Positions 5,132 to 25,246 are shown, counted from the first letter of the stretch. The stretch is DNA of 64,000 nt from an uncultured Gammaproteobacteria bacterium (GCA_965602855.1 CBFCZV010000002.1:25659-89658); one strand, 5' to 3'. Translations and numbers: made by a program. The notes: generated from the sequence alone by a model not told the origin.

Positions 5132-5905
5132 TTATTGATCCAATCGTCCCATCCAGTCAGCTACCCATCTAATCAACTCATCTTCTTTGCCTTCAAAAAA
5201 ATGATCGGCATTTTTTATGGCTAGCTGGCTGTAGCGTTGGTTGCCGGCTTCTTTTCCTGCTGCCATGCGTTTGTCGTTGTTGTCGAGTACGCTTTTCAGG
5301 TCGTCGCTGCCGTAGATGTCGAGTACGGGGGTGGTGATTTTTTTCAGGCTTTCGGTGTTCATCATGCGGGTATCAGCAAAGAGATCGGGCATACCTATGC
5401 CGACAAATCCCATTACATCTGTTTTGTTTTTTGACAGGTGGTAGGTGCCCATGGTGCTGCCCTGACTGTGGCCAATTAAAATAATTTTTTTATACTCTTC
5501 TTCTTTTAAGTAATTAATAGCGGCGTTGATGCGAGGGCTGACTTCTTCGTAGAGTGGGGCGTACTCGGTGTATTCTGCACCGTTATGCAGAACGGGCATT
5601 TGAATTGATAGTGTGTGCCAGCCATGTTCGGTGAGGCCGATGCGCAGGGGCCTGATGACCTGTTCCATGTCGGGGTGGATGCCGGTGCCGTGCATGATGA
5701 TGGCGGCGCGTTGCTGGTCTTCGGTGGCTTCAGTGAAGATGCTGAGGAATTCATTTTTGCCCTCGTCGAGCATGACTATTTCACCGTCCATTAAATTGTC
5801 TTCAATGGCTTCGGCCCAGCGTTTTTCTTTAGTGAGGTCAGAGGCGTTCACGTTTAGTGTGAAGCTGAATGCGATGAGGGTAATGATGGTTGAGATGGAT
5901 TTCAT
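5132..5905 (-). CDS. alpha/beta hydrolase, secreted
   Basis: 257 aa; signal peptide; GHSQG nucleophile elbow (GxSxG). Confidence 0.7.
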
Positions 5906-7827
5906 GAAGTTGTGCCTGCTATTTGATATTCGAGGAAAACGCCGGCAAATAAAACCAGCCCAAACCAGTTGTTGTTTAAAAATGCTTTAAAACATTGCGC
6001 AGGATCTCTGTGGCGAATTAAGTGCTGTTGCCAGATAGCGAATCCTGTGGCTAGTAGTACGCCAGTGTAGTAAAAAATACCGAGTCCTGCGTTTAGGCCG
6101 ATCATGATCAGGCAGAGTATGAGTGTACCCTGAATGATGCCGATGATGAGTTTATCTGCATCTTCGAAAAGAATAGCCGTGGATTTTACGCCGATTTTTA
6201 AATCATCTTCACGATCGACCATAGCGTACATGGTGTCATAAGCCGTTGCCCATAAAACGGTGGCGATAAATAACAACCAGGCGACCGGGTTGAGTTCATT
6301 GCTCTGTGCGGCGTAAGCCATGGGTACGGCCCAGCCGAAAGCTGCACCCAGATGCACTTGTGGTAAATAGTGGTGGCGCTTCATGAATGGGTAGCTGGCA
6401 GCGAGTATGAGTCCAACTACGGATAATACTATAGTGAGCGGGTTCATCAGTAGCACCAGACCAAAGGCAGCGAGACAAAGTACAGCAAATACGATTAGCG
6501 CTTCTTTCTCGGAGATTTTGCCCGAGGTCAGCGGGCGGTCTTTGGTGCGAGCGACCTTGCAGTCGATGTCTCTGTCGGCGTAATCGTTGATGGCGCAACC
6601 TGCTGAGCGCATCAGGAAAACTCCGGCGACAAAAACCAGCAATACATCGGTGTCGGGCCAGCCACCAGCGGCAATCCATAAGGCCATGAGTGTTGGCCAG
6701 AGCAGTAATAATATTCCAATGGGTTTGTCTAATCGAATGAGCAGCGCGTACTGTTTAGGTTTGTTAACTAGCTGTGATTTTTTTACTCGTTTGTTAACCT
6801 TGTGCAGGCTTAATTTTTGTTTAAAATAAAATATCTTTACCCGCAATGCGAGTTGCTTCCTGATACCACTTATGAATTTATTAGTGCCGGATAAGGCGTT
6901 TTTGATGACGGCTTTAATTCCGGTAAATATTGCTCTGAAGCCTTCATAGATGGATTGAAGCGCTATCTTGATGAAAGTGAAAAAGGCTTTTGCCGTGCTT
7001 ATAAGGCCAGCAAATATTGCCTTGATGCCTTCATAGATAGATTGAAGTACTACCTTGATGAAAGTGAAAAAGGCTCTGGCAGCAGCTTTAATTTCGGCAA
7101 CTAGTACTATTAAGCCTTTATAAATAGATCGAAGTACTGTCTTGATGAATGCGTAAAAAATTTTCGAAGCGGCTTTAATTCTGGCGACTAGTGTTTTAAT
7201 GCCTCTGCTGAGTGCGCGGAGAGCTGCCTTAATGAGTTCGTAAAAAGACTTAGCTACTGTTTTTATTTCAGCAAGTAGTGCATTAATGCCTTTGCCAAGT
7301 ACGTGGAGAACTGTCTTGATGAACTGGTAAATGGCTTTCGCAGCCGATTTTATTCCAGCCAGTATTGCCTTAATGCCTCTGCCGAGTACGCGGAGAGCTG
7401 TTCTGATGAGAGCATAAAAGACTTTTGTGGCGGCACTAACTTTGGCGAATATCGCTCTTGCTATTAAGAATAATAAGAAGAGACCAAACCTGATTAGGGC
7501 AAAAATAACTCTGGTCGTTAATATAATGCCGGCAGTCAGGGAGTAGAGCGCGGCTTTGCTAAAGGCAAAAAAGGCCTTAATACCGGCTTTAATTTTGCCG
7601 GGCAGTGGCTTCAGACTTAAGAGCAGTATGAAGAGAGTCATCTCGCCGATGGCAAAAATAACTTTGATGATTAATATAATTCCGTTGGTCAGTCGGGGTG
7701 GAATTATTGTTGTGAACAGCAGGGAGAGATTCAGCCAGACAAGGTCAAAAAGAACATTGGCGATTAATGTGGTGCCACTAATCAGCCGCTTTATAGCCTG
7801 TAAAAATTTGCTGAAAAAAGAAGTCAT
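5902..7827 (-). CDS. ubiA: 4-hydroxybenzoate polyprenyltransferase (UbiA) fused to a repeat-rich N-terminal extension
   Basis: The C-terminal ~290 aa aligns over its full length with E. coli UbiA ([18 protein letters not shown]...NDYADRxxD...YDTxYAMVDRxDD). The N-terminal ~350 aa is membrane-like plus six 29-aa basic amphipathic repeats. No canonical internal start codon lies between the repeat domain and the UbiA domain. Confidence 0.75.
6880..7460 (-). repeat. in-frame 87-bp tandem repeat array (at least 6 copies) inside the 5' half of ubiA
   Basis: A CTTGATGAA-type anchor recurs at 6967, 7054, 7141, 7228, 7315 and 7402 with an exact 87-nt period; it encodes xAKxFYxFIKTVLRxLxxGIKxLxAxIK units. 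Confidence 0.85.
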
Positions 7828-8601: not shown

Positions 8602-10515
8602 GTGATTGAAGAGCAACATAAAAAATCGAATGTAGTAAATTTGAATCAAAGCCTCAAAGATAGAGAGGTAGAGATAGATCTTTTACAGAAAACCTTTGCT
8701 GAGATCGGTGGTGAGCTCGATCTTGATAAGGTTTTTCAGATCGTTTCTGAGCGTGCTCGCTCTTTAGTGCGTGCAGAAACAATATTGATCCCCCTTCTTG
8801 ATGATAACTGTGAAACCTACACCTATCGTGGTGGTTCGGGTGAAAATACGGATGAAATCGTTGGTGAGTCGCTGCCACTGGAATTTGGTATTTGCGGCTG
8901 GGTCTGGAAGCACAAACGCCCCTGGTGGCGAGGTATGCTTGATGAGCTGGATGATGATGAAAGAAACCGTTGGGAAGAAGAAGCAGGCACGATGATTCTG
9001 GTGCCCTTGCAGGGACGGCGGCATTTTCTGGGTGGCATTGCTGGTATCAATAAAGTCGGTGGTGGTGAATTTACCCGCAGGGATTTAAATTTATTGCAGA
9101 TGTTTGCCAGTATCGTATCGATTGCCATCGAAAATGCCATGTCTGTGGACAGCATGGAGAAAGCCAGAAAGGTTAACGATGATTATCGGATGCGTCTGGA
9201 AGTTCTCAACAAGCAGTTGCTAGAGAGCACCAAGGAACTGGAGTACCTGTCGTTGTACGATACGGTAACCGGCCTGCCCAATCGCTCGTTATTTCATGAT
9301 CGCCTATCACGCAATATTTCTCAGGCAATCTTATCAGACGAACATATTGGTCTCCTGATAGTTGATCTTGATCGATTTAAGGAAATCAATGAGGCATTGG
9401 GCCATGAGCGGGGAGATTTACTGCTGAAGAAAATTGCACAGCGTTTTGAGCGGAATATGAAGTCCAGTGAAACACTGGCACGTTTAGGTGGTGATGAATT
9501 TATTATTGTGATGCCGGATTGCAATGAAGAAAAATCGATGCAGAGGGCAAAAGAATTTATAGCGATGTTTGATGAGGAGTTTAATATCGTCAATATGAAA
9601 ATACCCGTCAGCGCCAGTTTTGGCTTGTCCATATTTCCGACCCAGGGTGATGATGCTGGTAGTTTGTTGAGTCATGCGGATTCGGCTATGTATGAGGCAA
9701 AGACCAACTCTGTAAAACTATGCATGTATGACCCTGAGCGTGATTATATGACTAGAGGTCGTCTGGTGATGGAAGCTGGCATACGTCGTGCGCTGGAAGA
9801 AAAACAATTTGAGCTATATTACCAGCCAAAGATTTCTATTAAGGATGGTAAGTTAACTTCAGCAGAAGCATTGGGTCGTTGGGTAACAGAAGAACGGGGT
9901 GTTGTTTTACCTGATAGCTTTATAAAAGTGCTTGAGCAAAATGGTCTGCTTGATGATTATACTTATTGGGCTATTGAAACTGCGTTAAAGCAGGCAAAAG
10001 CCTGGGCTAGTGAGTATTCGTTACGTGTCGCAGTAAATTTGTCACCGCATACTTTGATAGATCCTAATTTTATAAAAAAAATGGATGAAATTATTGGTGA
10101 TAAAGAAAGTGGTAAACATCTCATTTTTGAAATTACTGAGAACCTGTTTTTGTCAGAATATAAATTATTGAGTGAAGTGCTTGAATATGTATGTAAGTTA
10201 GGTGTTCATTTATCTATTGATGATTATGGTACCGGCTATTCATCATTAAGTCGCTTAATCAAGCTACCGGTTAATGAGTTAAAGATTGATAAATCATTTG
10301 TTAAAAATGTGAATACTAATAAAGATGATGAGATAGTGGTGCGATCCACGATCGAGCTGGCTCACAATCTTGGTTTAACGGTAGTGGCTGAAGGCATAGA
10401 AGATGAAGAAGTTATGTGCTTCCTGAAAAAATACAATTGTGATATTGCTCAGGGTTTTTTGATCAGCAAGCCGCTACCGCTTGATGAGTTTGACAAGTTT
10501 TTAAAGGAATATTGA
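8602..10515 (+). CDS. GAF-GGDEF-EAL c-di-GMP signalling protein
   Basis: 637 aa; N-terminal GAF-like region; GGDEF active-site motif RLGGDEFIIV; EAL motif EALGRW with downstream DDYGTGYSS; GTG start. Confidence 0.85.
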   Translation: MIEEQHKKSNVVNLNQSLKDREVEIDLLQKTFAEIGGELDLDKVFQIVSERARSLVRAETILIPLLDDNCETYTYRGGSGENTDEIVGESLPLEFGICGWVWKHKRPWWRGMLDELDDDERNRWEEEAGTMILVPLQGRRHFLGGIAGINKVGGGEFTRRDLNLLQMFASIVSIAIENAMSVDSMEKARKVNDDYRMRLEVLNKQLLESTKELEYLSLYDTVTGLPNRSLFHDRLSRNISQAILSDEHIGLLIVDLDRFKEINEALGHERGDLLLKKIAQRFERNMKSSETLARLGGDEFIIVMPDCNEEKSMQRAKEFIAMFDEEFNIVNMKIPVSASFGLSIFPTQGDDAGSLLSHADSAMYEAKTNSVKLCMYDPERDYMTRGRLVMEAGIRRALEEKQFELYYQPKISIKDGKLTSAEALGRWVTEERGVVLPDSFIKVLEQNGLLDDYTYWAIETALKQAKAWASEYSLRVAVNLSPHTLIDPNFIKKMDEIIGDKESGKHLIFEITENLFLSEYKLLSEVLEYVCKLGVHLSIDDYGTGYSSLSRLIKLPVNELKIDKSFVKNVNTNKDDEIVVRSTIELAHNLGLTVVAEGIEDEEVMCFLKKYNCDIAQGFLISKPLPLDEFDKFLKEY

Positions 10516-10521
10516 GTTTTA

Positions 10522-11919
10522 TCAAATCCTGGGGAAGTTGATAGTTACTACCAGCCCTGAACCGGTTTCTGGTTCTCCCATTTGCAGCGTTGCGTTATGT
10601 AATTCAACAACACGCATAACAATAGACAGGCCTATGCCGCATCCCGGGTTGTCATGATTTTCCATTCTGAAAAATCGCTCGAATACACGTTCACGCTGCT
10701 CGGCAGGAATACCCGGACCGTTATCCTCAATGATTAAGTCGATAGATTCTTTGCCAGGAATTATTGCAGCTTTAACTTTGCCGCCTTCCTGCGTGTAGCA
10801 TATAGCATTATTTATAAGGTTTCGTATTAACAAACTTAGAGATGTGTTGTCTGCTTTTATATCAACGTCTTCACATTCATCGACAGAAAGCTCGATATTT
10901 TTTTTATCTGCGATGGGCGTGAGTAGTGCAACCTCGTCAATGACGGCATTTTTGAGATTGAGTGTCTCAAGGTTTTTTGAGAAGGATTCTGGTTCCAGCT
11001 TTGCCAGTGCCAGTAGTTGATCGACCAGATGAGTCGTTCGATCTATGCCGTGAAGAATATTTTCCAGTGCGATTTCTCTATCATCATCATTGCTGGCTTT
11101 TTGGGCTAATTCGGTGTGCAGTCTAACCGCTGCCAGAGGTGTTCTAAGTTCATGGGCAGCATCGGAAGTAATTCTTTTCTCTCTGTCCAGGGCGTGTTTT
11201 AAGCGTGACAATAAACTGTTTAATGCGCCGGCAATGGTTTTTATTTCGGTGGGCACATGGGTTTCTGAAACAGCATCAAGCTTAGAGGCGTCGCGTCGTC
11301 CAATTTGTGAAGCAAGGTTTTGCAAAGGTGATAATCCCTGACTGATGGCAAACCACATAACAATCGATAGCACAGGTGTTAGAACGATAAATAATAGAAA
11401 AAGATCTGAACTTAATTTTTTTATTAAATCATTGCGTACATCGATGCGCTCCGCGGTTATACATTGATAGTGAGGTTTGTAACTGTGCAAACTAAATACC
11501 CGCCATTCCTGACCAAGGAAAGACTGGTTATCAAAACCCTCTTCTTTATCGGACATGGGTTTGATCGGGGCATTTTTCGATTTCAGGATTAGATTGCCGA
11601 GGTCGTCCCACACCTGAAAGGCAAGTTTATTTTCATAGACATGGCCAGAGATTAGTTCGTGAGCGGCTTCATCATCGTGTTCCTGTTCGTCTGACATCAT
11701 GGCATTTTCATCGAGATATTTCTGAATGCTTGAGAAGTCACTGCGTCCTTGATCTGCCTGAACCATGCTCAGCATCAAGCGAGCAGAACGTGATAGCTGG
11801 GCATCGAATAGTTCTCTGGTTTCGTGCTGTGTGTCTTCGTAACCAAACCAGGTGCCACCGCCCACTATGAGTAGTGAAACTATAAACAGGCGCAGCATGA
11901 GGTGGTATCTAATAGACAT
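10522..11919 (-). CDS. two-component sensor histidine kinase (QseC/PmrB-like)
   Basis: 465 aa; two TM segments flanking a periplasmic domain; H-box HELRTPLAAV; C-terminal HATPase with G-boxes; start overlaps the regulator stop (TAATG). Confidence 0.85.
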   Translation of the reverse strand: MSIRYHLMLRLFIVSLLIVGGGTWFGYEDTQHETRELFDAQLSRSARLMLSMVQADQGRSDFSSIQKYLDENAMMSDEQEHDDEAAHELISGHVYENKLAFQVWDDLGNLILKSKNAPIKPMSDKEEGFDNQSFLGQEWRVFSLHSYKPHYQCITAERIDVRNDLIKKLSSDLFLLFIVLTPVLSIVMWFAISQGLSPLQNLASQIGRRDASKLDAVSETHVPTEIKTIAGALNSLLSRLKHALDREKRITSDAAHELRTPLAAVRLHTELAQKASNDDDREIALENILHGIDRTTHLVDQLLALAKLEPESFSKNLETLNLKNAVIDEVALLTPIADKKNIELSVDECEDVDIKADNTSLSLLIRNLINNAICYTQEGGKVKAAIIPGKESIDLIIEDNGPGIPAEQRERVFERFFRMENHDNPGCGIGLSIVMRVVELHNATLQMGEPETGSGLVVTINFPRI

Positions 11920-12578
11920 TATTCTTTAGCTACGGTGTAACCGACGCCGCGTACTGTTTTTATCAGGTCAGCGCCGAATTTTTTTCGAAGGTGATGGATG
12001 TAGACTTCGATGGTGTTGCTTTCAATTTCGTTACCCCAGCTATAGAGTTTTTCTTCAAGATAGGGTCGAGACAGAACGCGCCCGGCACTTGAGATAAGTT
12101 CCTCTAACAGAGCCAGTTCACGTCTGGAAATTTCTATATTTTCATTGTCGTATGAGATCGTGTGGGCAGATGAATCGATAATGATATTTTTATACTTAAT
12201 GGTTTGCTGGGATAGCCCGCGTGAGCGCCGGGTGAGGGCGCGGAGTCTGGCGCAAAGCTCGTCAAGTTCGAAGGGTTTTGTCAGGTAATCATCAGCACCT
12301 GCATCCAGTCCGCCAACCCGATCAGATACAGCATCCTGTGCGGTTAGTATGAGAACGGGTGTGGTTACCTCCTGTTTACGGGCATTGCCCAGTACTTCCA
12401 GGCCGTTCATTTTTGGCAGGCCGATATCCAGAATGATGGCGTCATAAGGAATGCTGGTGATTGCAGATAAGGCGGCTTCACCATCTTTGACCCAGTCGAT
12501 GGAATAACCATCATTTTGTAATCCGGTCTGTAAGCCACTGCCGAGCAGTGAGTCGTCTTCGACCAATAAAATACGCAA
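11919..12578 (-). CDS. OmpR-family response regulator
   Basis: 219 aa; receiver domain MRILLVEDD...ILDIGLP; C-terminal winged-helix trans_reg_C. Confidence 0.9.
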   Translation of the reverse strand: MRILLVEDDSLLGSGLQTGLQNDGYSIDWVKDGEAALSAITSIPYDAIILDIGLPKMNGLEVLGNARKQEVTTPVLILTAQDAVSDRVGGLDAGADDYLTKPFELDELCARLRALTRRSRGLSQQTIKYKNIIIDSSAHTISYDNENIEISRRELALLEELISSAGRVLSRPYLEEKLYSWGNEIESNTIEVYIHHLRKKFGADLIKTVRGVGYTVAKE

Positions 12579-12624
12579 GTCTTTTTCCTGTTTGGTTTAA
12601 TATGGTGAATCTTCAACGATTAAG

Positions 12625-12641
12625 CTTAAGTCAGGCTTAAA
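12625..12641. promoter_or_regulatory. direct repeat CTTAAG-N5-CTTAAA (PmrA/QseB-type box-like) in the divergent promoter region
   Basis: Two CTTAA half-sites 11 bp apart between the response-regulator gene and the TlpA-like gene; the palindrome GTCTTAAGAC lies nearby at 12667-12676. Confidence 0.3.
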
Positions 12642-12712
12642 TGTATTTATCTGGATATTTAAGGTTGTCTTAAGACTCAGTCCATAATCTTAGTCCATCT
12701 AAATTTAATAGT

Positions 12713-13207
12713 GTGTATAAGAATATGAGACTAGCTCAGTATACCTTCCTTTTGTTGATGCTAACTTTTAGCCATATCAGCCTTGCGGCCGTTCAGGACG
12801 CGCCTTCGATCAAGCTGCCGACGGCCGATGGTCAGGTAGATCTGGCTACACTGAAGGGCAAAGTGGTTTATCTTGATTTCTGGGCATCCTGGTGTGAGCC
12901 GTGCAAGAAATCATTTCCCTGGATGCATAAGATGAAAAAGACTTATCAGGATAAAGGTTTCGAAGTGCTGGCGATTAGCCTTGATAAGGAAAGAAAACTG
13001 GCGGATGCATTTCTAAAAGGCATGGATATTAATTTTGTGGTTGCTTTTGATGATGCGGGGAATACCGCCAAAGAATATAAACTGCGCGGTATGCCGAGCA
13101 GTTACCTGATTGGACGTGATGGCAAACTCTATGCATCACATATTGGTTTTCGTGAGAAAGACAAAGCGAAAATGGAAAAAGCGATTAAGCAATTGTTAGC
13201 GCAGTAG
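12713..13207 (+). CDS. TlpA/ResA-like periplasmic thiol:disulfide oxidoreductase
   Basis: 164 aa; signal peptide; thioredoxin fold with WASWCEPCKK (CxxC). Confidence 0.8.
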   Translation: MYKNMRLAQYTFLLLMLTFSHISLAAVQDAPSIKLPTADGQVDLATLKGKVVYLDFWASWCEPCKKSFPWMHKMKKTYQDKGFEVLAISLDKERKLADAFLKGMDINFVVAFDDAGNTAKEYKLRGMPSSYLIGRDGKLYASHIGFREKDKAKMEKAIKQLLAQ

Positions 13208-13222
13208 TCACGGCAATAACCA

Positions 13223-13459
13223 TTGATTTTGATTATGAGGAGTATTATGAAACGCACAGCAACAATTATTTTATTAATGGCGCTTGCAGGTTGTTCCAGC
13301 ATGGGCGTAGAACCATGGGAGCGCGATCTGCTAGCCAAAGATTCGATGCAATTATCGCCTGATTATTTCGATAATTTTTACGATGAGCACATTTATTTCA
13401 GTAAAGAGGCCTCCAGTGGTGGTCAGGGCGTCGGCGGCGGAGGTTGCGGATGCAATTAA
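13223..13459 (+). CDS. DUF4266-type small lipoprotein
   Basis: 78 aa; lipobox LAGCSS; C-terminal GGGGCGCN tail that I recall as characteristic of DUF4266. Confidence 0.65.
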   Translation: MILIMRSIMKRTATIILLMALAGCSSMGVEPWERDLLAKDSMQLSPDYFDNFYDEHIYFSKEASSGGQGVGGGGCGCN

Positions 13460-14742
13460 AGAAGATAAAAGGCCAGATGGCCGTAGCGACCTGTGCCCTG
13501 TTACAGGTTGCCTCACCCGCTGTTAATGCAGTGGAAGCCGAAACTGAATGGGATGTTGATACCGCATTTCTTTATTACAGTGAAGCAGATGGTCGGGTGT
13601 CCGCATTTGAACCTGCCATCTATGCAGGTCGTGATCTGGGTGATGATGAGCGAGTAGATTTTCGAGTTGTTTTCGATGCCCTGACAGGTGCAACGCCCAA
13701 TGGTGGTTACGCAACTTCAGCACCACAAACCTTTACCACGCCATCAGGTGACAGTTCATACACCACACCTGCGGGAGAATCGCCACTGGATGATACCTTT
13801 AGAGATGCGCGTGTTTCTCTGGGTGCCGACTGGACCATGTCACTGGATCGTATGTCCAGAGTGGTATGGGGTGCGAATCTTTCTGGAGAGATCGATTATA
13901 TTTCCATGGGTGTGACTGCTGCTTATTCTCAGGACTTTAATAATCGAAACACCACGCTAACGACCAGTTTTGGTTTTAATAACGATATGATTAATCCCCA
14001 GGGCGGCACCCCCATTGAGTTTGCGCCAATGCGTGCCGCAAATACGGGCACTAACAGAGATGGTGACAGTGAAACAAAAACCATCACTGACTTTATGATT
14101 GGCGTTACTCAGGTGGTGAGTCGCAAGACACTTATTCAATTGAATATATCGTTAGGCATGGTTGATGGTTACCAGAATGATCCCTATAAGATTTTGACAG
14201 TATCAAATGCTGCAGGTGATCCTATAACCTCATTTTTGACAGCTAATGATTTATCTTATGTTTATGAAAAAAGACCTGACTCACGCCAGAAAAATGTTAT
14301 GTTCTTCAAGGCCGTGCATCATCTAGAAGAAGATGTCATTAACTTCTCGTACCGTTATTACTCAGATGACTGGGGCATTAAATCGCACACACTGGATTGG
14401 AAATATCGTTATGAGCTGGCTAACAGTTATTTGCAGCCACACGTGCGCTACTACACACAGGACGCTGCTGATTTCTATAGTCACAGTCTGGTGCTAGGGA
14501 CTGATATTGATACCGCCGGTAATGCGCTGGTTGATTATGCCAGCAATGATTACCGACTGGCCGAATTGGATACAGTCACACTGGGTCTTAAATATGGCAT
14601 GCTCATGGGCAATGATAGCGAGTTCTCCGTGCGCGGTGAGATCATTTCCCAGTCCGTGAATGACAGTGGTGTGCCTGCTGGTCAGGAAACCCCTGATTTG
14701 GATGCACTGATGTTTCAGGTTAACTATTCTTTCTTGTGGTGA
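13444..14742 (+). CDS. DUF3570-like secreted protein (predicted outer-membrane beta-barrel)
   Basis: 432 aa; signal peptide; alternating-hydrophobic beta-strand character; C-terminal ...YSF(L)W; overlaps the upstream gene. Confidence 0.6.
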   Translation: MRMQLKKIKGQMAVATCALLQVASPAVNAVEAETEWDVDTAFLYYSEADGRVSAFEPAIYAGRDLGDDERVDFRVVFDALTGATPNGGYATSAPQTFTTPSGDSSYTTPAGESPLDDTFRDARVSLGADWTMSLDRMSRVVWGANLSGEIDYISMGVTAAYSQDFNNRNTTLTTSFGFNNDMINPQGGTPIEFAPMRAANTGTNRDGDSETKTITDFMIGVTQVVSRKTLIQLNISLGMVDGYQNDPYKILTVSNAAGDPITSFLTANDLSYVYEKRPDSRQKNVMFFKAVHHLEEDVINFSYRYYSDDWGIKSHTLDWKYRYELANSYLQPHVRYYTQDAADFYSHSLVLGTDIDTAGNALVDYASNDYRLAELDTVTLGLKYGMLMGNDSEFSVRGEIISQSVNDSGVPAGQETPDLDALMFQVNYSFLW

Positions 14743-14796
14743 TAATTGATTATGACGAAACAGGGATTGTTTCTGACATGCTGATCAATTAAGTTT

Positions 14797-14825
14797 AGGG
14801 CTTCTATAAAGAAGCCCTTTTTTTT
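14797..14825 (+). terminator. rho-independent terminator-like hairpin
   Basis: AGGGCTTCT-ATAA-AGAAGCCCT stem-loop followed by T8; it directly abuts the annotated ApbE ATG, which therefore has no SD. Confidence 0.5.
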
Positions 14826-15722
14826 ATGAAAAATTTAAAATCAAAAAATCTAAAGCTGAAACGGGAAGCCGATTACTGGCAGGGCTCATTCTCAGCCATG
14901 GCCAGTCCCTGTGAAGTGCTCATGGAAGTCAAAGACAAGACACTGGCTGCCCGTATCCTCGAGGCGGTAGCTGATGAAGCAAAGCGCATAGAGAAAAAAT
15001 TCAGTCGTTATCGTGATGATAATATTATTCATAAAATAAATAATGCAAAAGGCTCGCCGGTTTCAATCGACGATGAAACAGCAAGGTTGATCGATTTTTC
15101 GTGCCAGCTCCACCAGATGTCCGAAGGCCTGTTTGATATCACCTCCGGTGTACTCAGAAAAGTCTGGAAGTTTGATGGCAGTGATAACGTGCCGGAGTTT
15201 TTAGCGGTGGCCGCTATGCTGGAGAAGATTGGCTGGTCAAAGGTGCAATGGAAATACCAAACGGTAACCATGCCCGAAGGCATGGAAATTGATCTCGGCG
15301 GTGTCGGTAAAGAATACGCCGTTGATTGCTGTGTACAAATAGCACGTTCTTTAACCGATGAAAGCGTGCTGGTTAATTTTGGTGGTGATCTGGCCACCAC
15401 CGGCGAACGCCGAAACAAAAACTGCTGGTCAGTCGGCCGGTTGGTCACCGGCAAGGAAAATGCAGTTGCTCTGTTTAAACTATCCCGTGGTGCCATCGCC
15501 ACCAGTGGTGATGCACATCGTTATTTATTGAAAGATGGTGTGCGTTACAGTCATGTGCTCAATCCTAAAACAGGCTGGTCGGTACCCGATGCACCGCATA
15601 CGGTGAGTGTGGCAGCACCTACCTGTGTTGAAGCGGGGATGATGTCTACATTGGCGATGTTGCAGGGGGAGAAGGCGAGGGAGTTTTTGGGGTTGCAGGA
15701 AGTGGATTTTTGGGTGGATTAG
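14826..15722 (+). CDS. apbE: FAD:protein FMN transferase (ApbE family)
   Basis: 298 aa; F-AM(A/G) N-terminal motif region; ApbE-like C-terminus; no obvious signal peptide and no SD upstream, so the start is uncertain. Confidence 0.7.
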   Translation: MKNLKSKNLKLKREADYWQGSFSAMASPCEVLMEVKDKTLAARILEAVADEAKRIEKKFSRYRDDNIIHKINNAKGSPVSIDDETARLIDFSCQLHQMSEGLFDITSGVLRKVWKFDGSDNVPEFLAVAAMLEKIGWSKVQWKYQTVTMPEGMEIDLGGVGKEYAVDCCVQIARSLTDESVLVNFGGDLATTGERRNKNCWSVGRLVTGKENAVALFKLSRGAIATSGDAHRYLLKDGVRYSHVLNPKTGWSVPDAPHTVSVAAPTCVEAGMMSTLAMLQGEKAREFLGLQEVDFWVD

Positions 15723-15814
15723 GTTTCTGTCGCTAAACAACCTCCGTCATCCCGGTATGTTTTTTAGCCGGGATCCATGTTTGGGAATTTGTAGTAATTC
15801 ATAACTTTGGTGGA

Positions 15815-15832
15815 GTGGGTATTCGCACCCAC
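15815..15832. repeat. REP-like inverted repeat GTGGGTATTCGCACCCAC
   Basis: Perfect hairpin followed by GGGCG; a related element GTGCGAATTCATTCGCAC-GGCGC sits at 45881-45898. Confidence 0.4.
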
Positions 15833-16285
15833 GGGCGAGGCACTTTTTATATTCCGCACATCCATGTGCTCCACCCTACGGGCCGTGTATAAAACACACG
15901 TTTAAATCTGATCCAGTCAGATTTATCTACAGTAAGAAAAAGTACCCAAAAAGTGCCGCCCCAAACAACCTGCCTCAGATTCCAACTTTGCCTACGCGTC
16001 GGCCTGACTCGCAATCCCGCTCGCAGGCCTTGATTTGCCGTCCATGGCAAATTAACCCTACCAAAGCCAAAAGCCTCGGCAAACTGATAGGGGATGGAAA
16101 AACTAAAAACGCTTTTTTATATGGTGCAACGCTCTGCGTTTATTGACTCCTGCGTGCTGGTATATATAAGAAACCTCAATAGCGCGCAATAAAGCGCATC
16201 GAGATAAAAATAGAGATAAAAGGTTGCGCTAAAATATAATAACTGCTATCGTTTACGAAACGTAGTAAATGACAGAGGAAGAATT

Positions 16286-17077
16286 ATGTCTGTGCAAATT
16301 AAAAAAAGAGCAGCACGAAGCCCGAATTACCCAATACAGCCCTTAGAGTGGGCTGTTAGCAATGCTCTTCAACTCCTTGATAAAGAAGGCTTACATGCTG
16401 TGCCGCCAGACATAGTAGCGCGAAATTTAGGATACAAAAACGCTAGTAATGGCAAGGCTGGTCGAGTTTTAGCGAATTTAAAAGCGTTTGGTGTAATTGA
16501 GAAGGCTTCTTCTGGAAAATTAGCTGTCAGCCAAGATGTGCAGCGTTACAAGTTAGCTCCTACAGATAGCGATAGAAAAAGCTATTTAAAACAATGGCTT
16601 AAAACGCCTCTGCTCTACAGTAAGATCATGGGAAAGTATGAAAACGACTTGCCTTCTGATGCTGTGTTGTTATTCGAGTTAGTAGATGAGCATGGCTTTA
16701 ATGAAGATGCTGCTGAAAAAGCTATAAAGGTTTTTCGTGAATCTATCGATTTTGTTAAAAGAGCTACAAATGGTTTAGATAATGAAAGCAGTGAACAAGT
16801 GCCTGAAGGGGATGATTTTGCAACGGATGCAGGCATAGAAGTGCAGCAAATGACTGCACAGAGCAGCACAACTGCTACAGGTGTGGTGCATGAGCGGACT
16901 AAAAAAGCACCACCGCAAACGAATACTGATAATTTTAGATACCCAATTAGACTTGCTGGTGGGCGAATAGCTTGGATCGAGGTGCCAGTGCCCTTTTATG
17001 AGGCTGATAAAAACAAATTAAAAGCACAAATCGAAATTATAGGTACAGATGATGAAGATGGTGACATTAGTATGTAA
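16286..17077 (+). CDS. hypothetical protein in the AT-rich islet
   Basis: 263 aa; no recognisable motif; low GC compared with the flanks. Confidence 0.45.
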   Translation: MSVQIKKRAARSPNYPIQPLEWAVSNALQLLDKEGLHAVPPDIVARNLGYKNASNGKAGRVLANLKAFGVIEKASSGKLAVSQDVQRYKLAPTDSDRKSYLKQWLKTPLLYSKIMGKYENDLPSDAVLLFELVDEHGFNEDAAEKAIKVFRESIDFVKRATNGLDNESSEQVPEGDDFATDAGIEVQQMTAQSSTTATGVVHERTKKAPPQTNTDNFRYPIRLAGGRIAWIEVPVPFYEADKNKLKAQIEIIGTDDEDGDISM

Positions 17078-17230
17078 CGCTAAAACAAAAACACCCGCAT
17101 AAGCGGGTGTTTAGGGGAATGGAAGTCCACTCCTATGTAGCTGACACTTAATAGCATAGTGGATTCCCCTTTTTGAAGCAAATGATTTTCAGTGCTTCCC
17201 TGAAAATCAATTTTTTAGAAAGGTGACTTT

Positions 17231-17389
17231 ATGTCAAAAGTAAACCGCAGCAATGCTGTGTCAAAAAAAAGCTCAAATAAATCTAAAGGATATATTTTCT
17301 GTAGATTTAGGCGGGTGAAAAATAGTAATAGATACCTAGATGCTCATGACTATGGTTATGAAGCTTGGCGAATACCTATAGGTAAATAA
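17231..17389 (+). CDS. small basic hypothetical protein (52 aa)
   Basis: MSKVNRSNAVSKKSSNKSKGYIFCRFRRVKNSNRYLDAHDYGYEAWRIPIGK; good SD (AAAGGTGA) 5 nt upstream; followed by a hairpin plus T-run at 17396-17432; too short to appear in the ORF track. Confidence 0.3.
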   Translation: MSKVNRSNAVSKKSSNKSKGYIFCRFRRVKNSNRYLDAHDYGYEAWRIPIGK

Positions 17390-17395
17390 CTATGA

Positions 17396-17432
17396 CGCTC
17401 GACTCTTTAATGGGTCGGGCGTTTTTTTATAA
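17396..17432 (+). terminator. rho-independent terminator
   Basis: ACGCTCGAC...GTCGGGCGT stem with one mismatch, followed by TTTTTTT. Confidence 0.45.
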
Positions 17433-17508
17433 AGCCAAGCTCGTAGGGTGTGGTAAGGCACGAACCGCATCACTCGCGTAATCTAATCCGCGCCAAAACC
17501 CCAACAAT

Positions 17509-17835
17509 TTAAGCCACCTTAGTCTTCGTAGAAATCGCTTTAGCCAAATCCTTCTGCGAAGCCCCCAACGCGAGCAATGACTTAATAAGAAGATCAATAG
17601 AAACCGAAGCTGATCCCGTTTCCATTTTTGCGACTCTTGACTGGCTTGATTTAATTAATTTTGCAAAGGCGGTTTGACTTAAATGTTTGCGCTGGCGCAT
17701 TTCTTTCAGGCTTTGGGACAGGGACATTTTCATTTCTATAAATGCCTCTTCTTCTGGTGTTAGCTCAAGAAAGTCAGCGGCTGTTCCAATTTTCCAGCCT
17801 TTGGTTTCCAGTTGTTTACGTTTAGTCTGTTTCAT
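17509..17835 (-). CDS. higA: HigA-type antitoxin (XRE-family HTH)
   Basis: 108 aa; HTH RQRKHLSQTAFAKLIKSSQSRVAKMETG; start overlaps the toxin stop (GATAATGAA). Confidence 0.7.
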   Translation of the reverse strand: MKQTKRKQLETKGWKIGTAADFLELTPEEEAFIEMKMSLSQSLKEMRQRKHLSQTAFAKLIKSSQSRVAKMETGSASVSIDLLIKSLLALGASQKDLAKAISTKTKVA

Positions 17836-18160
17836 TATCGTAATCTCTTAATCTAGCTTTGCAGATATCAATGACAATTTTGGGCGTTTTGCTTGTTTTC
17901 TTTTCAAACACTTCAAGAATCACGACTGCATCTTCATCTGTTCTGTATACAATTCGCTAGGTCACGTTGTTATCTGTAATTCGAAGTTCATGACATCGTC
18001 TTCCAATCGTTGGCATTGGCCGTGATTGCGGCATACTTAATTTTTCACCAATCTGCAATCTCCTTAGTAAAAAACCAGCTTCAATGCGGGCAGAGGAGGA
18101 AAATGGTGGTGTTTTCACTTCACCATGAAGCCATACAACTACCTTGTCTTTTGTGTCCAT
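17822..18160 (-). pseudogene. higB: HigB-type (Gp49-like) toxin interrupted by an in-frame TAG
   Basis: The 67-codon ORF ends at a TAG at 17957-17959 on the minus strand. The same frame then continues as RIVYRTDEDAVVILEVFEKKTSKTPKIVIDICKARL...* ending at 17822; this resembles the ILLHGFxKKTQKTP motif I recall for Gp49-like HigB toxins. Confidence 0.6.
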
Positions 18161-18336
18161 GTTGAAAATAATATGTCATATGTGACATATTGTCAATAAG
18201 GGTTATTGGGCCGTCCGAGCATGGTTGGTATGTAGTTTTTAATTTGCCCGCCGTAATTTATTCCTGTAAAACACTATAAAAATGTAAACAAGGCAGTACC
18301 TCATCAAAGGATAGGCACCCAGGGATCGTTCCAGCT

Positions 18337-19080
18337 ATGGATAAAGCAAGAAAACTATACACAAATAAAAAGTGGTATGACTTTTCTGACAAGGTAAAAC
18401 AAAGAGACGGCCATAAATGCCTGCGCTGCAAAAGAGGGGAGTCTGAAGTGGTTCTCCAGGTGCATCATGAAATATATGTAAAAGATAAACCGCCATGGGA
18501 GTATTCGCTGAGTGATTGCAGAACTTTGTGCAAGGGCTGTCATGCAAGAGGGCATAAGCTAATTGCACCTGATCGGGGCTGGACTTTAATTTTGATTGAA
18601 GATCTGGGTGGGGCAGATGGTATTTGTGAACGGGAAAATTGTGGGCATGAGATAAGATATGCGCATGTAACTTATCACCCTGGCTGGGGTTATAAAGTCG
18701 TTGGTAGTACCTGTGTTCAACATCTAACCAAAAAAGACAGATTGCTAAGCAGTCATATTATTACCCTGTATAAAAACATTAGTAAATTTGTTCATGGTTC
18801 AGACTGGGAAAATAGTTTCACTAAAAAAGGAAAGAAATATTTAACCTGTAAATACAAGCATCATTCAATAAGAATATATGGTGAAGAAAATAACTATTCT
18901 TACCAGCTTGTTTTGAAAGAAAAAGGAATACGCTGGCATGAATTTCGAGACATCATTCCTGCCAGGAATATGAGCCTGGAGGAAGTAAAAGAATTGTCTT
19001 ATATCGTGCTGAAAGGAACGGTCAGTAAGAACGAAGAAGAAAAGTCGTTATTGAGAGATGTATACAGAAAAATAAAATAA
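18337..19080 (+). CDS. HNH endonuclease with an uncharacterised C-terminal domain
   Basis: 247 aa; N-terminal HNH motif HKCLRC...VHHEIY...CKGCH; low-GC gene. Confidence 0.7.
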   Translation: MDKARKLYTNKKWYDFSDKVKQRDGHKCLRCKRGESEVVLQVHHEIYVKDKPPWEYSLSDCRTLCKGCHARGHKLIAPDRGWTLILIEDLGGADGICERENCGHEIRYAHVTYHPGWGYKVVGSTCVQHLTKKDRLLSSHIITLYKNISKFVHGSDWENSFTKKGKKYLTCKYKHHSIRIYGEENNYSYQLVLKEKGIRWHEFRDIIPARNMSLEEVKELSYIVLKGTVSKNEEEKSLLRDVYRKIK

Positions 19081-19087
19081 CACAGAT

Positions 19088-21075: not shown

Positions 21076-21179
21076 TCAGATATGATAAATTTTTTAATTC
21101 CCCCTGACTGCTGCTATATAAGCGTTTTCTGGTATTTGACCGCATGCTTAGGGGTAATTGTTCCAGAGAGGAAGTGTTG

Positions 21180-25246
<4,067 letters not shown>

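Follow-up and report, generated by a model that had tools for sequence, protein, structure and literature searches.

The closest described relatives of the locus considered here are the gene clusters reported by Méheust et al. (2021, eLife; PMC8238504), in which ApbE occurs with DUF3570, a thioredoxin-like protein and DUF4266, 227 such clusters being accompanied by DsbD and 316 having no co-located DsbD, while 25 related clusters harbor a VIT1 iron transporter. In that study, the DUF3570 protein of Chlorobium luteolum was experimentally shown to be flavinylated by its ApbE at two [S/T]GA[S/T] sites, a signal-less DUF3570 being modified in the Escherichia coli cytoplasm by a truncated Chlorobium ApbE without its signal peptide; the authors also remarked that DUF4266 ends in CXC, and they left the function of the clusters open (PMC8238504). 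A 2025 review on ApbE, which gives the target motif as D-x-x-[S/T]-G-A-[S/T] and describes a cytosolic ApbE of Klebsiella pneumoniae that flavinylates a soluble fumarate reductase, does not mention DUF3570 (PMC12052999). The present locus occupies positions 10522 to 15722 of a stretch of 64,000 nucleotides from an uncultured gammaproteobacterium (GCA_965602855.1, CBFCZV010000002.1:25659-89658), hereafter referred to as the window, and combines a cluster of this type with a divergently encoded two-component pair. A contig identical to that of the window is ENA ERZ25073486, and the nearest relatives of the window point to a marine source.

A preliminary description of the locus, made from the sequence alone, had listed six open reading frames (ORFs), all of which are present and individually backed by Pfam: a sensor kinase and its response regulator on the minus strand and, divergent from them, four plus-strand genes encoding a TlpA-like oxidoreductase, a DUF4266 lipoprotein, a DUF3570 protein and ApbE. 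The explanation which best accounts for this six-gene unit, and in which we place slightly more confidence than doubt, is that a PmrA-like pair switches on an outer-membrane thiol/flavin relay.

RESULTS AND DISCUSSION

Relationship to the published flavinylation clusters

The window cluster is a member of the published cluster type. ApbE (PF02424) and DUF3570 (PF12094) are encoded in one cluster with a thioredoxin-like protein and with DUF4266 (PF14086), whose C-terminal CXC is contained in the ending GCGCN. When DUF3570 is compared with the published two-site motif, the first site (DALTGAT) fits perfectly and the second (SGDS) does not. DsbD (PF02683), whose co-location defines the “DsbD systems” of that study, and CcdA are both missing from the called window ORFs of 150 amino acids (aa) or more, which assigns the locus to the published subset without DsbD. 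The same four protein families are thus found together, and DUF3570 again carries an ApbE target motif, but several differences are apparent: the thioredoxin is of the TlpA/Redoxin type rather than PF13899, only a single flavinylation site is canonical, and in ApbE both the signal peptide and the triad Asp are missing. Méheust et al. describe neither a dedicated PmrA/QseB-like pair with its conserved boxes nor a terminator before apbE, and they do not discuss the barrel nature of DUF3570, the one mention of the outer membrane recovered by text search of that paper referring to siderophore transporters. The module, which the preliminary description had called one of unknown function, had already been published (PMC8238504). 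What is new here is the regulator with its presumed operator, the topology predicted for the flavin site at the outer membrane, the cytoplasmic type of ApbE that occurs throughout the clade and the conserved terminator.

Conservation of the six-gene unit

To assess synteny, 80 genome loci carrying a DUF3570 relative (designated by L numbers where they must be told apart) were searched by tblastn with the six proteins of the window, and ORFs and Pfam domains were then inspected. The four genes of the cluster co-occur in Gamma- and Betaproteobacteria, Campylobacterota, Acidobacteriota and Bacteroidota, in two arrangements. In Proteobacteria, Campylobacterota and Acidobacteriota (L034, L053 and others), a TlpA-type thioredoxin is followed by DUF4266, DUF3570 and a signal-less ApbE, and in Bacteroidota (L042, L065 and others) a Thioredoxin_7-type thioredoxin is followed by a secreted ApbE, DUF4266 and DUF3570. 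In Maribacter, a gene for a Rieske lipoprotein with a Tat signal is located just 5′ of the module.

The divergent kinase/regulator pair is limited to the window's own clade, composed of uncultured marine gammaproteobacteria with DUF3570 identities down to 51%; it marks this lineage and does not accompany the cluster in general. When loci were chosen by DUF3570, the pair was present in 9 of 11 informative loci; it is found in L002 to L006, L009, L082 and L084 and missing from L001 and L083. When loci were chosen by the kinase, all five orthologues (73, 59, 55, 55 and 54% identity, on long contigs) were encoded divergently from tlpA-DUF4266-DUF3570. As this linkage holds while the flanking genes differ, across at least three contexts (GGDEF-EAL/aroE-hemB, RND efflux/aminotransferase and CitMHS/gdh), the six genes travel as a unit. 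The check named in the preliminary description, namely, whether the four-gene neighborhood with an adjacent pair is conserved across genomes, is therefore answered by a block that spans phyla and a pair that accompanies it within one clade.

The two-component pair and its candidate operator

The kinase (465 aa; 10522 to 11919, minus strand) is QseC/PmrB-like and contains a periplasmic 2CSK_N domain followed by HAMP, HisKA and HATPase_c, while the OmpR-type regulator (11919 to 12578, minus strand) is PmrA/QseB-like, with Response_reg and Trans_reg_C domains. QseB and QseC are the best-scoring NCBIfam families of the pair, with full-length alignments, although the scores fall short of equivalog level: 269 bits against a cut-off of 475 for the kinase as QseC, and 252 bits (cut-off, 345) and 242 bits (cut-off, 330; NF007928) for the regulator as QseB and PmrA, respectively. 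Judged by these scores, the pair is neither PmrAB nor QseBC proper. In the PDB, the kinase is nearest to the cytoplasmic domain of QseC (3JZ3; E 1e-34), and the regulator is best matched, without gaps, by K. pneumoniae PmrA/BasR (4S04 and 8JO2; E 4e-52). Of the PmrA base-contact residues Asn188, Asn196, Arg210, Thr187, Val192 and His195 (PMC4660055), four are kept in the window regulator, namely, N188 (base specific), V192, H195 and R210, with T187 replaced by Ser and N196 by His. An acidic, His-rich stretch of the kinase loop, DEQEHDDEAAHE, was considered as a PmrB-like metal site and dropped, as it is not conserved in orthologues.

The pmra-box is described as two XTTAAY hexamers with N5 spacing that overlap the −35 element (PMC10570014), with CTTAAG and CTTAAT as reported half-sites (PMC3973317) and CCTAAG as a further published one. 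The motif YTTAAK-N5-YTTAAK has two exact matches in the 64 kb, where 0.26 would be expected, and both fall inside the 134-bp spacer that separates the divergent genes. The first is the CTTAAG-N5-CTTAAA repeat pointed out previously, which is indeed present at 12625 to 12641 and, read on the minus strand as TTTAAG-CCTGA-CTTAAG, is proximal to the regulator. The second, TTTAAG-GTTGT-CTTAAG (12658 to 12674, plus strand), had been missed; it is proximal to tlpA and takes the place of a −35 element, with a probable −10 hexamer, CATAAT (12683 to 12688, plus strand), 8 bp 3′ of it. CTTAAG is its own reverse complement, and box orientation is read from the degenerate half-sites only.

The two boxes conform to YTTAAR-N5-YTTAAG. 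Each of the 14 pair-linked loci (the window and 13 others) has at least one box, and in nine whole loci of 11 to 21 kb every match to CTTAAG-N5-CTTAAG with no more than one mismatch falls in the spacer. No box was found in L083, from which both the pair and tlpA are missing. The tlpA-side box and a CATAATCTTA block around the −10 position are kept in nearly all aligned relatives, including L001, which has no adjacent pair; in L006 they are degenerate (two mismatches in the box). In L089, no tlpA-side box was found within one mismatch. The regulator-side box, found in the window, L005, L006, L009, L082 and L084 to L089 and absent from L002 to L004, is the less conserved of the two, and it is this box that had been flagged initially. 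In L001 (positions 1451 to 1622), the closest relative in the genome collection, no pair lies between the GGDEF-EAL gene and tlpA, and the tlpA-proximal box and −10 block are kept, which suggests that either the pair was lost recently or the operon is under a regulator whose gene lies elsewhere.

With boxes conserved at the right place, and with N188 and R210 kept and N196 changed to His, the arrangement agrees with class II activation by a PmrA-like regulator that also controls its own operon, most likely through the regulator-proximal box. From these features, we infer that the regulator binds the boxes and regulates the operon, as the preliminary description had suggested when it proposed that the pair controls the module. 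The resemblance to the PmrAB (BasSR) and QseBC systems of Enterobacteria accordingly covers the domain architecture, including the 2CSK_N sensor, a regulator whose nearest solved structure is that of K. pneumoniae PmrA and which retains key DNA-contact residues, and direct repeats of YTTAAR hexamers with 5-bp spacing over the −35 position, together with a probable autoregulatory box. The window pair differs in scoring below the equivalog cut-offs for PmrA, QseB, PmrB and QseC alike, in the N196-to-His and T187-to-Ser replacements, in having no lipopolysaccharide modification targets nearby, in the absence of a conserved ExxE-type motif from the kinase and in its presumed target, a redox module.

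It could be argued that the adjacency is coincidental and that the pair serves a distal regulon only, since L001 and L083 have the cluster without the pair and more distant lineages have no such pair beside it. Such a view must, however, contend with linkage that is seen in both directions over different flanking contexts and with boxes that occupy the tlpA −35 position and occur nowhere else in the nine whole loci or the 64-kb window. These boxes are missing from L083, although in L001 the tlpA-side box persists with no pair beside it. On account of the two-way synteny and the spacer-limited conserved boxes, we consider coincidence extremely improbable and effectively excluded.

TlpA and the DUF4266 lipoprotein

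The first gene of the operon (12713 to 13207, plus strand) encodes a TlpA/ResA-like periplasmic thiol:disulfide oxidoreductase with Pfam matches to AhpC-TSA, Redoxin and Thioredoxin_8, that is, a thioredoxin fold of the Redoxin/AhpC-TSA type and not PF13899. Gene callers use the ATG at 12725, which yields a protein of 160 aa with a Sec signal ending in HISLA (followed by AVQ) and a WCEPC active site; its matches to the NCBIfam families ResA, TlpA and DsbE are all under cut-off. The second gene (13247 to 13459, plus strand) encodes a small DUF4266 lipoprotein of 70 aa (PF14086, E 2.8e-21) with the lipobox LAGC, followed by SS, and a Gly-rich tail which ends in GGGGCGCN-COOH. This C terminus, FSKE..GG....GGCGC[NY], is nearly invariant across phyla.

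The DUF4266 start codon, an ATG at 13247 preceded by a Shine-Dalgarno (SD) sequence (GAGGAG, 7 nucleotides [nt] 5′ of the ATG), leaves a gap of 39 nt after tlpA, whereas the DUF4266 and DUF3570 genes overlap by 10 nt, the DUF3570 ATG being preceded by GGAGG. The first three genes had been described as overlapping or separated by a few nucleotides, which is correct for DUF4266-DUF3570 but not for tlpA-DUF4266 if the ATG at 13247 is used. Because the 10-nt overlap is kept in relatives, translational coupling and a 1:1 complex of DUF4266 and DUF3570 are suggested.

A CxxC protein, a Cys-Gly-Cys tail and a flavin could, in principle, be run in either direction. The oxidative alternative would be an outer-membrane flavin-dependent sulfhydryl oxidase built from the same parts as the reductive relay, in which electrons would pass from substrate thiols via TlpA and the CGC tail to FMN (flavin mononucleotide) and on to O2 or another acceptor. 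Such a design is known from Erv2p, in which a flexible C-terminal Cys-Gly-Cys arm lies next to the flavin, and the dithiol/flavin relay of Erv2p and QSOX, with its thioredoxin-type CxxC, flexible Cys-x-Cys arm and flavin, offers a functional analogy, and no more than that, the folds being unrelated and the parts here being three separate envelope proteins with a covalent FMN that would be installed by ApbE. DsbD, which would imply reductive input, was not found among the scanned window ORFs, a point in favor of the oxidase, while members of the TlpA/ResA family are typically reductants. As DsbD, a reductive electron importer, is moreover co-located with 227 related clusters (PMC8238504), we regard the oxidative direction as distinctly unlikely and retain the reductive relay as the favored reading.

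DUF3570 as a predicted outer-membrane barrel with a flavin site

DUF3570 (430 aa; 13450 to 14742, plus strand, with an alternative start at 13444; PF12094, E 5e-114) was modeled with AlphaFold2 using an alignment of 47 homologues, which gave a predicted local distance difference test (pLDDT) score of 85.6, a predicted template modeling (pTM) score of 0.81 and about 16 long strands. Connections of 2 to 4 residues alternate with long ones (32, 26, 37, 35 and 13 residues) and three short ones. The protein possesses a Sec signal ending in AVNA (followed by VEAE) and the aromatic C terminus NYSFLW, and hence the features of an outer-membrane barrel are found together: a signal peptide, a closed antiparallel barrel, short turns opposite long loops and a C-terminal aromatic residue. 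DUF3570 therefore appears, on the strength of this model, to be an outer-membrane β-barrel with its flavin site in a long loop.

A search for ApbE target motifs, which the preliminary description had recommended, located one within DUF3570 itself. The heptapeptide DALTGAT (D76 to T82; 13675 to 13695, plus strand) is a perfect fit, and D76, L78, T79, G80 and A81 are invariant in the 47 homologues, and FMN is predicted to be attached to T82. The modeled site spans the junction of strand 3 (residues 67 to 81) with the 32-residue loop 82-113; this loop is ordered (pLDDT, 76 to 86) and, given that both termini are periplasmic as in standard barrel topology, would lie on the outer side. Most lineages in a 78-sequence alignment carry a second site, [ST]GA[ST] (SGAS), about 20 residues downstream; in the window, the equivalent position (13744 to 13755, plus strand) reads SGDS and lacks both the Asp at −6 and the Ala at −1. 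As this second site is degenerate throughout the window clade, one FMN per barrel is predicted here.

Two metal transporters, ZnuD and OprC, are among the structural neighbors of the barrel, in keeping with the alternative that the module handles a metal such as copper: the CGC end would bind a thiophilic metal, TlpA would act as the reductant, the barrel would provide passage and the kinase would sense the metal, with the flavin as an accessory. CxC termini and TlpA-type reductases have both been linked to Cu(I) handling, and PmrB-type kinases sense metal ions. The regulator, however, scores lower against the heavy-metal CusR/CopR subfamily (186 bits) than against QseB (252 bits) or PmrA (242 bits), and the kinase loop has no conserved metal-binding motif. 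Although 25 related clusters encode VIT1 (PMC8238504), the flavinylation motif and the ApbE gene are kept with the barrel across phyla, which argues for a central role of the flavin; metal handling is thus judged to be quite improbable.

A cytoplasmic-type ApbE

The last gene (14826 to 15722, plus strand) encodes an ApbE-family FAD (flavin adenine dinucleotide):protein FMN transferase of 298 aa (PF02424, E 3e-61, 207.6 bits). It has the ApbE fold, with TM1553 as the closest PDB entry (E 6e-37), and reaches 93 bits against the NCBIfam equivalog cut-off of 498. Neither a hydrophobic N terminus nor a signal peptide or lipobox was found in the protein, and an in-frame stop 9 codons upstream of the ATG means that no longer ORF is possible. 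A start at Met25, giving the 274-aa form used by some gene callers, was rejected, since residues 1 to 24 show conservation among relatives and Met25 falls within the strand that corresponds to the LMGS motif at the N terminus of canonical enzymes.

For comparison, ApbE proteins were divided into type A (28 compared) and type B, from the TlpA-DUF4266-DUF3570-ApbE order (26 compared). All 26 type B enzymes start 10 to 25 residues before the first conserved strand, with a maximal 11-residue hydropathy of at most 1.43, whereas this value is at least 2.17 in 26 of the 28 type A enzymes, those of Bacteroidota having obvious signal peptides. The N terminus of the window enzyme is like that of the other type B proteins. 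The compartment puzzle raised in the preliminary description by an ApbE without a signal peptide or SD sequence is therefore real, and it extends to every type B enzyme compared. The two types are also distinguished by their motifs, which are KLMGSRFDI, GKGY, HIIDP and A-D-ALAT in type A and AMASPCE, GKEY, H[VIL]LNP and A-G-xxST in type B, the window enzyme having HVLNP and AG-MMST. With respect to the catalytic triad (D285/S241/H257 in the Vc enzyme and D301/S257/H273 in FmnB), the Ser (ATSGD) and His (YSHV) are kept in the window enzyme, while the Asp is replaced in it and in every type B enzyme by a Gly that aligns to FmnB D301 and Vc D285; the Asp of the IDP motif is likewise Asn in type B. 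The Asp-to-Gly replacement co-varies perfectly with a Gly-to-Glu replacement (GKGY to GKEY), a pattern that looks more like a relocated carboxylate than like a dead enzyme.

These properties bear on the question of whether this ApbE flavinylates DUF3570 at all. It may instead serve a cytoplasmic target or flavin metabolism, the barrel being modified by a separate periplasmic ApbE or left unmodified. In keeping with this alternative, none of the 26 type B enzymes has a signal peptide, type A enzymes having one, and no upstream start is possible in the window; the triad Asp and the IDP Asp are replaced; and apbE is missing from L082 and L089 while the other genes are present. Cytosolic ApbEs with cytosolic targets are known, as in K. 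pneumoniae (PMC12052999), whose enzyme resembles that of the window in belonging to the ApbE family and having no signal peptide, but whose target is cytosolic, whereas the only motif-bearing neighbor here is a Sec-exported barrel. The published flavinylation experiment, which used a Chlorobium ApbE stripped of its signal peptide, can be read both ways: as the E. coli cytoplasm was where a signal-less DUF3570 became flavinylated (PMC8238504), ApbE is able to work ahead of export or folding, and modification of the barrel prior to export is chemically possible. Considering further that apbE stays beside DUF3570 across several phyla, that Ser and His are kept and that Gly for Asp co-varies with the gained Glu, a different target for the type B enzyme is, on balance, unlikely.

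A conserved terminator-like hairpin before apbE

The DUF3570 and apbE genes are 83 nt apart, and the hairpin with a T-run that had been reported to abut the apbE ATG is present at 14797 to 14825 (plus strand). It consists of AGGGCTTCT-ATAA-AGAAGCCCT and the T-run, with a 9-bp stem, and ends exactly at the ATG; the 71 nt around it fold with −17.7 kcal/mol (z score, −3.3). A hairpin and T-run are located 0 to 4 nt before the ATG in every close relative with apbE. One group of loci (L001 to L005, L007 and L085) has the stem GGGCTTC/GAAGCCC with variable loops (ATAA, GTAA, GAAA and TTCG), and a second group (L083, L084 and L086 to L088) has GGCGTC/GACGCC-type stems. As the two stem types differ on both sides at three paired positions, the pairing itself is conserved; these compensatory changes were read from individually folded sequences, the MAFFT alignment having put the 3′ arms out of register owing to the differing loop lengths. 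Between the DUF3570 stop codon and the hairpin (14743 to 14796), the blocks GATTGTTTCT and CTGATCAATTA are kept in L002 to L005 and L007 and deleted in L001.

Alternative identities for the hairpin were considered and rejected. It is unique in the window and so not a dispersed repeat, and a TATAAA promoter in its loop is at odds with the variation of the loop among relatives. An Rfam scan of 10.0 to 19.5 kb returned nothing near gathering scores, and a subthreshold RyhB-like hit at 14772 to 14824 (24 bits, E 0.55) is most likely just the terminator hairpin. Because this conserved terminator precedes apbE and an SD sequence is missing 5′ of the gene, the tlpA-DUF4266-DUF3570 transcript probably ends for the most part at the hairpin, with apbE being expressed at a low level by read-through.

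A proposed outer-membrane thiol/flavin relay

In the model which we favor, the QseC/PmrB-like kinase would sense an envelope signal through its periplasmic 2CSK_N domain and phosphorylate the PmrA/QseB-like regulator, which would in turn bind both pmra-type repeats of the spacer. Binding to the tlpA-side box, which replaces the −35 element, would activate the operon in the class II manner of PmrA, and binding to the other box would allow autoregulation of the pair's own operon. The products would be a periplasmic TlpA-like dithiol reductase, a DUF4266 lipoprotein that is probably anchored in the outer membrane and presents a flexible Gly-rich tail ending in Cys-Gly-Cys, and a barrel of roughly 16 strands with covalent FMN on Thr82 at the start of its long loop. 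Reducing equivalents, supplied by a DsbD/CcdA-type protein encoded elsewhere, would pass from the TlpA CxxC to the CGC shuttle arm, thence to the barrel FMN and finally to an acceptor located within the outer membrane or outside it, while read-through would provide ApbE at low, catalytic levels. The framework is given by computation, in the form of the gene identities, the synteny, the conservation of the boxes, the barrel fold and the flavinylation motif. Binding by the regulator, the course that electrons take, their acceptor, the signal and the compartment in which flavinylation occurs are parts which the model proposes.

A number of observations weigh against this model. The cluster ApbE has neither a signal peptide nor the canonical triad Asp, which makes it hard to see how, or even whether, it modifies an exported barrel, and the second flavinylation site is degenerate in the window clade (PSG[DQENAV][SAG]). 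The acidic, His-rich patch in the periplasmic part of the kinase is not conserved, and hence no specific ligand is indicated; likewise, no DsbD or CcdA that could serve as the electron source was found when the called window ORFs of 150 aa or more were scanned. Close relatives, furthermore, dispense with single parts, since L001 (86% DUF3570 identity) and L083 have no two-component pair, L082 and L089 have no apbE and L083 has no tlpA, from which it follows that no part of the cluster is strictly indispensable in cis.

The fused cytochrome-porin Cyc2 and the porin-cytochrome complex MtrCAB, both of which conduct electrons across the outer membrane, provide a functional analogy only, that of a barrel carrying or housing a redox cofactor, there being no sequence homology. 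The cofactor in the window system would be FMN on a Thr rather than heme, DUF3570 having no CXXCH motif, and input would occur by thiol-disulfide exchange rather than through heme chains. A bolder version of the proposal, to which we assign a distinctly low probability, is that, in the proteobacterial form of the module, a rewired cytoplasmic ApbE attaches FMN before Sec export and that the resulting “flavo-porin,” with the CGC tail threaded into the barrel, forms a heme-free thiol/flavin conduit for electrons across the outer membrane under a PmrA-like switch.

Neighboring genes

The kinase gene is convergent with a GAF-GGDEF-EAL gene (8602 to 10515, plus strand), the two stop codons being 6 nt apart. 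This gene is syntenic in L001 to L005, L085 and L089, but because it is absent from the L084 and L086 to L088 contexts, it is probably not part of the unit. Further upstream, an ORF of 641 aa (5902 to 7827, minus strand) encodes a UbiA prenyltransferase whose UbiA domain is limited to residues 375 to 617, the N-terminal portion of some 350 aa being made up of 87-nt (29-aa) tandem repeats (6911 to 7409). Given that the orthologues in the syntenic loci L085 and L089 comprise 412 and 391 aa, the repeat extension is either specific to this genome or a product of calling the start too early, the true start being further downstream.

On the other side, about 3.3 kb between apbE and aroE (approximately 15800 to 19085) represents an insertion relative to the syntenic loci L085 and L089, in which the cluster is directly followed by aroE-hemB. 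It contains a 263-aa ORF without a family (16286 to 17077), an Xre-type helix-turn-helix gene (17509 to 17835, minus strand), a 67-aa ORF without a family (17957 to 18160, minus strand) and a 247-aa ORF that matches HNH weakly (18337 to 19080), and may be a small mobile or toxin-antitoxin-like islet. A second cyclic di-GMP protein, REC-PAS-GGDEF-EAL (874 aa; 21144 to 23768, plus strand), is encoded between hemB and hemF, in surroundings that otherwise consist of housekeeping genes (aroE, hemB, hemF, tsaC, topA, dprA, def, fmt, rsmB, trkA and trkH).

Implications for the DUF3570 module

The DUF3570 module is widespread, with more than 500 clusters counted by Méheust et al. (PMC8238504). A dedicated sensor pair with a clear candidate operator, as present in this clade of marine gammaproteobacteria, provides an experimental handle on its function and on the condition which induces it, since the inducing signal would point to the function. 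The absence of a signal peptide from every ApbE in this gene order poses a testable question, namely, how an exported barrel comes to be flavinylated. Finally, a DUF3570 barrel with a flavin site in one of its loops raises the possibility of a flavin-based counterpart to the porin-cytochrome conduits of the outer membrane.

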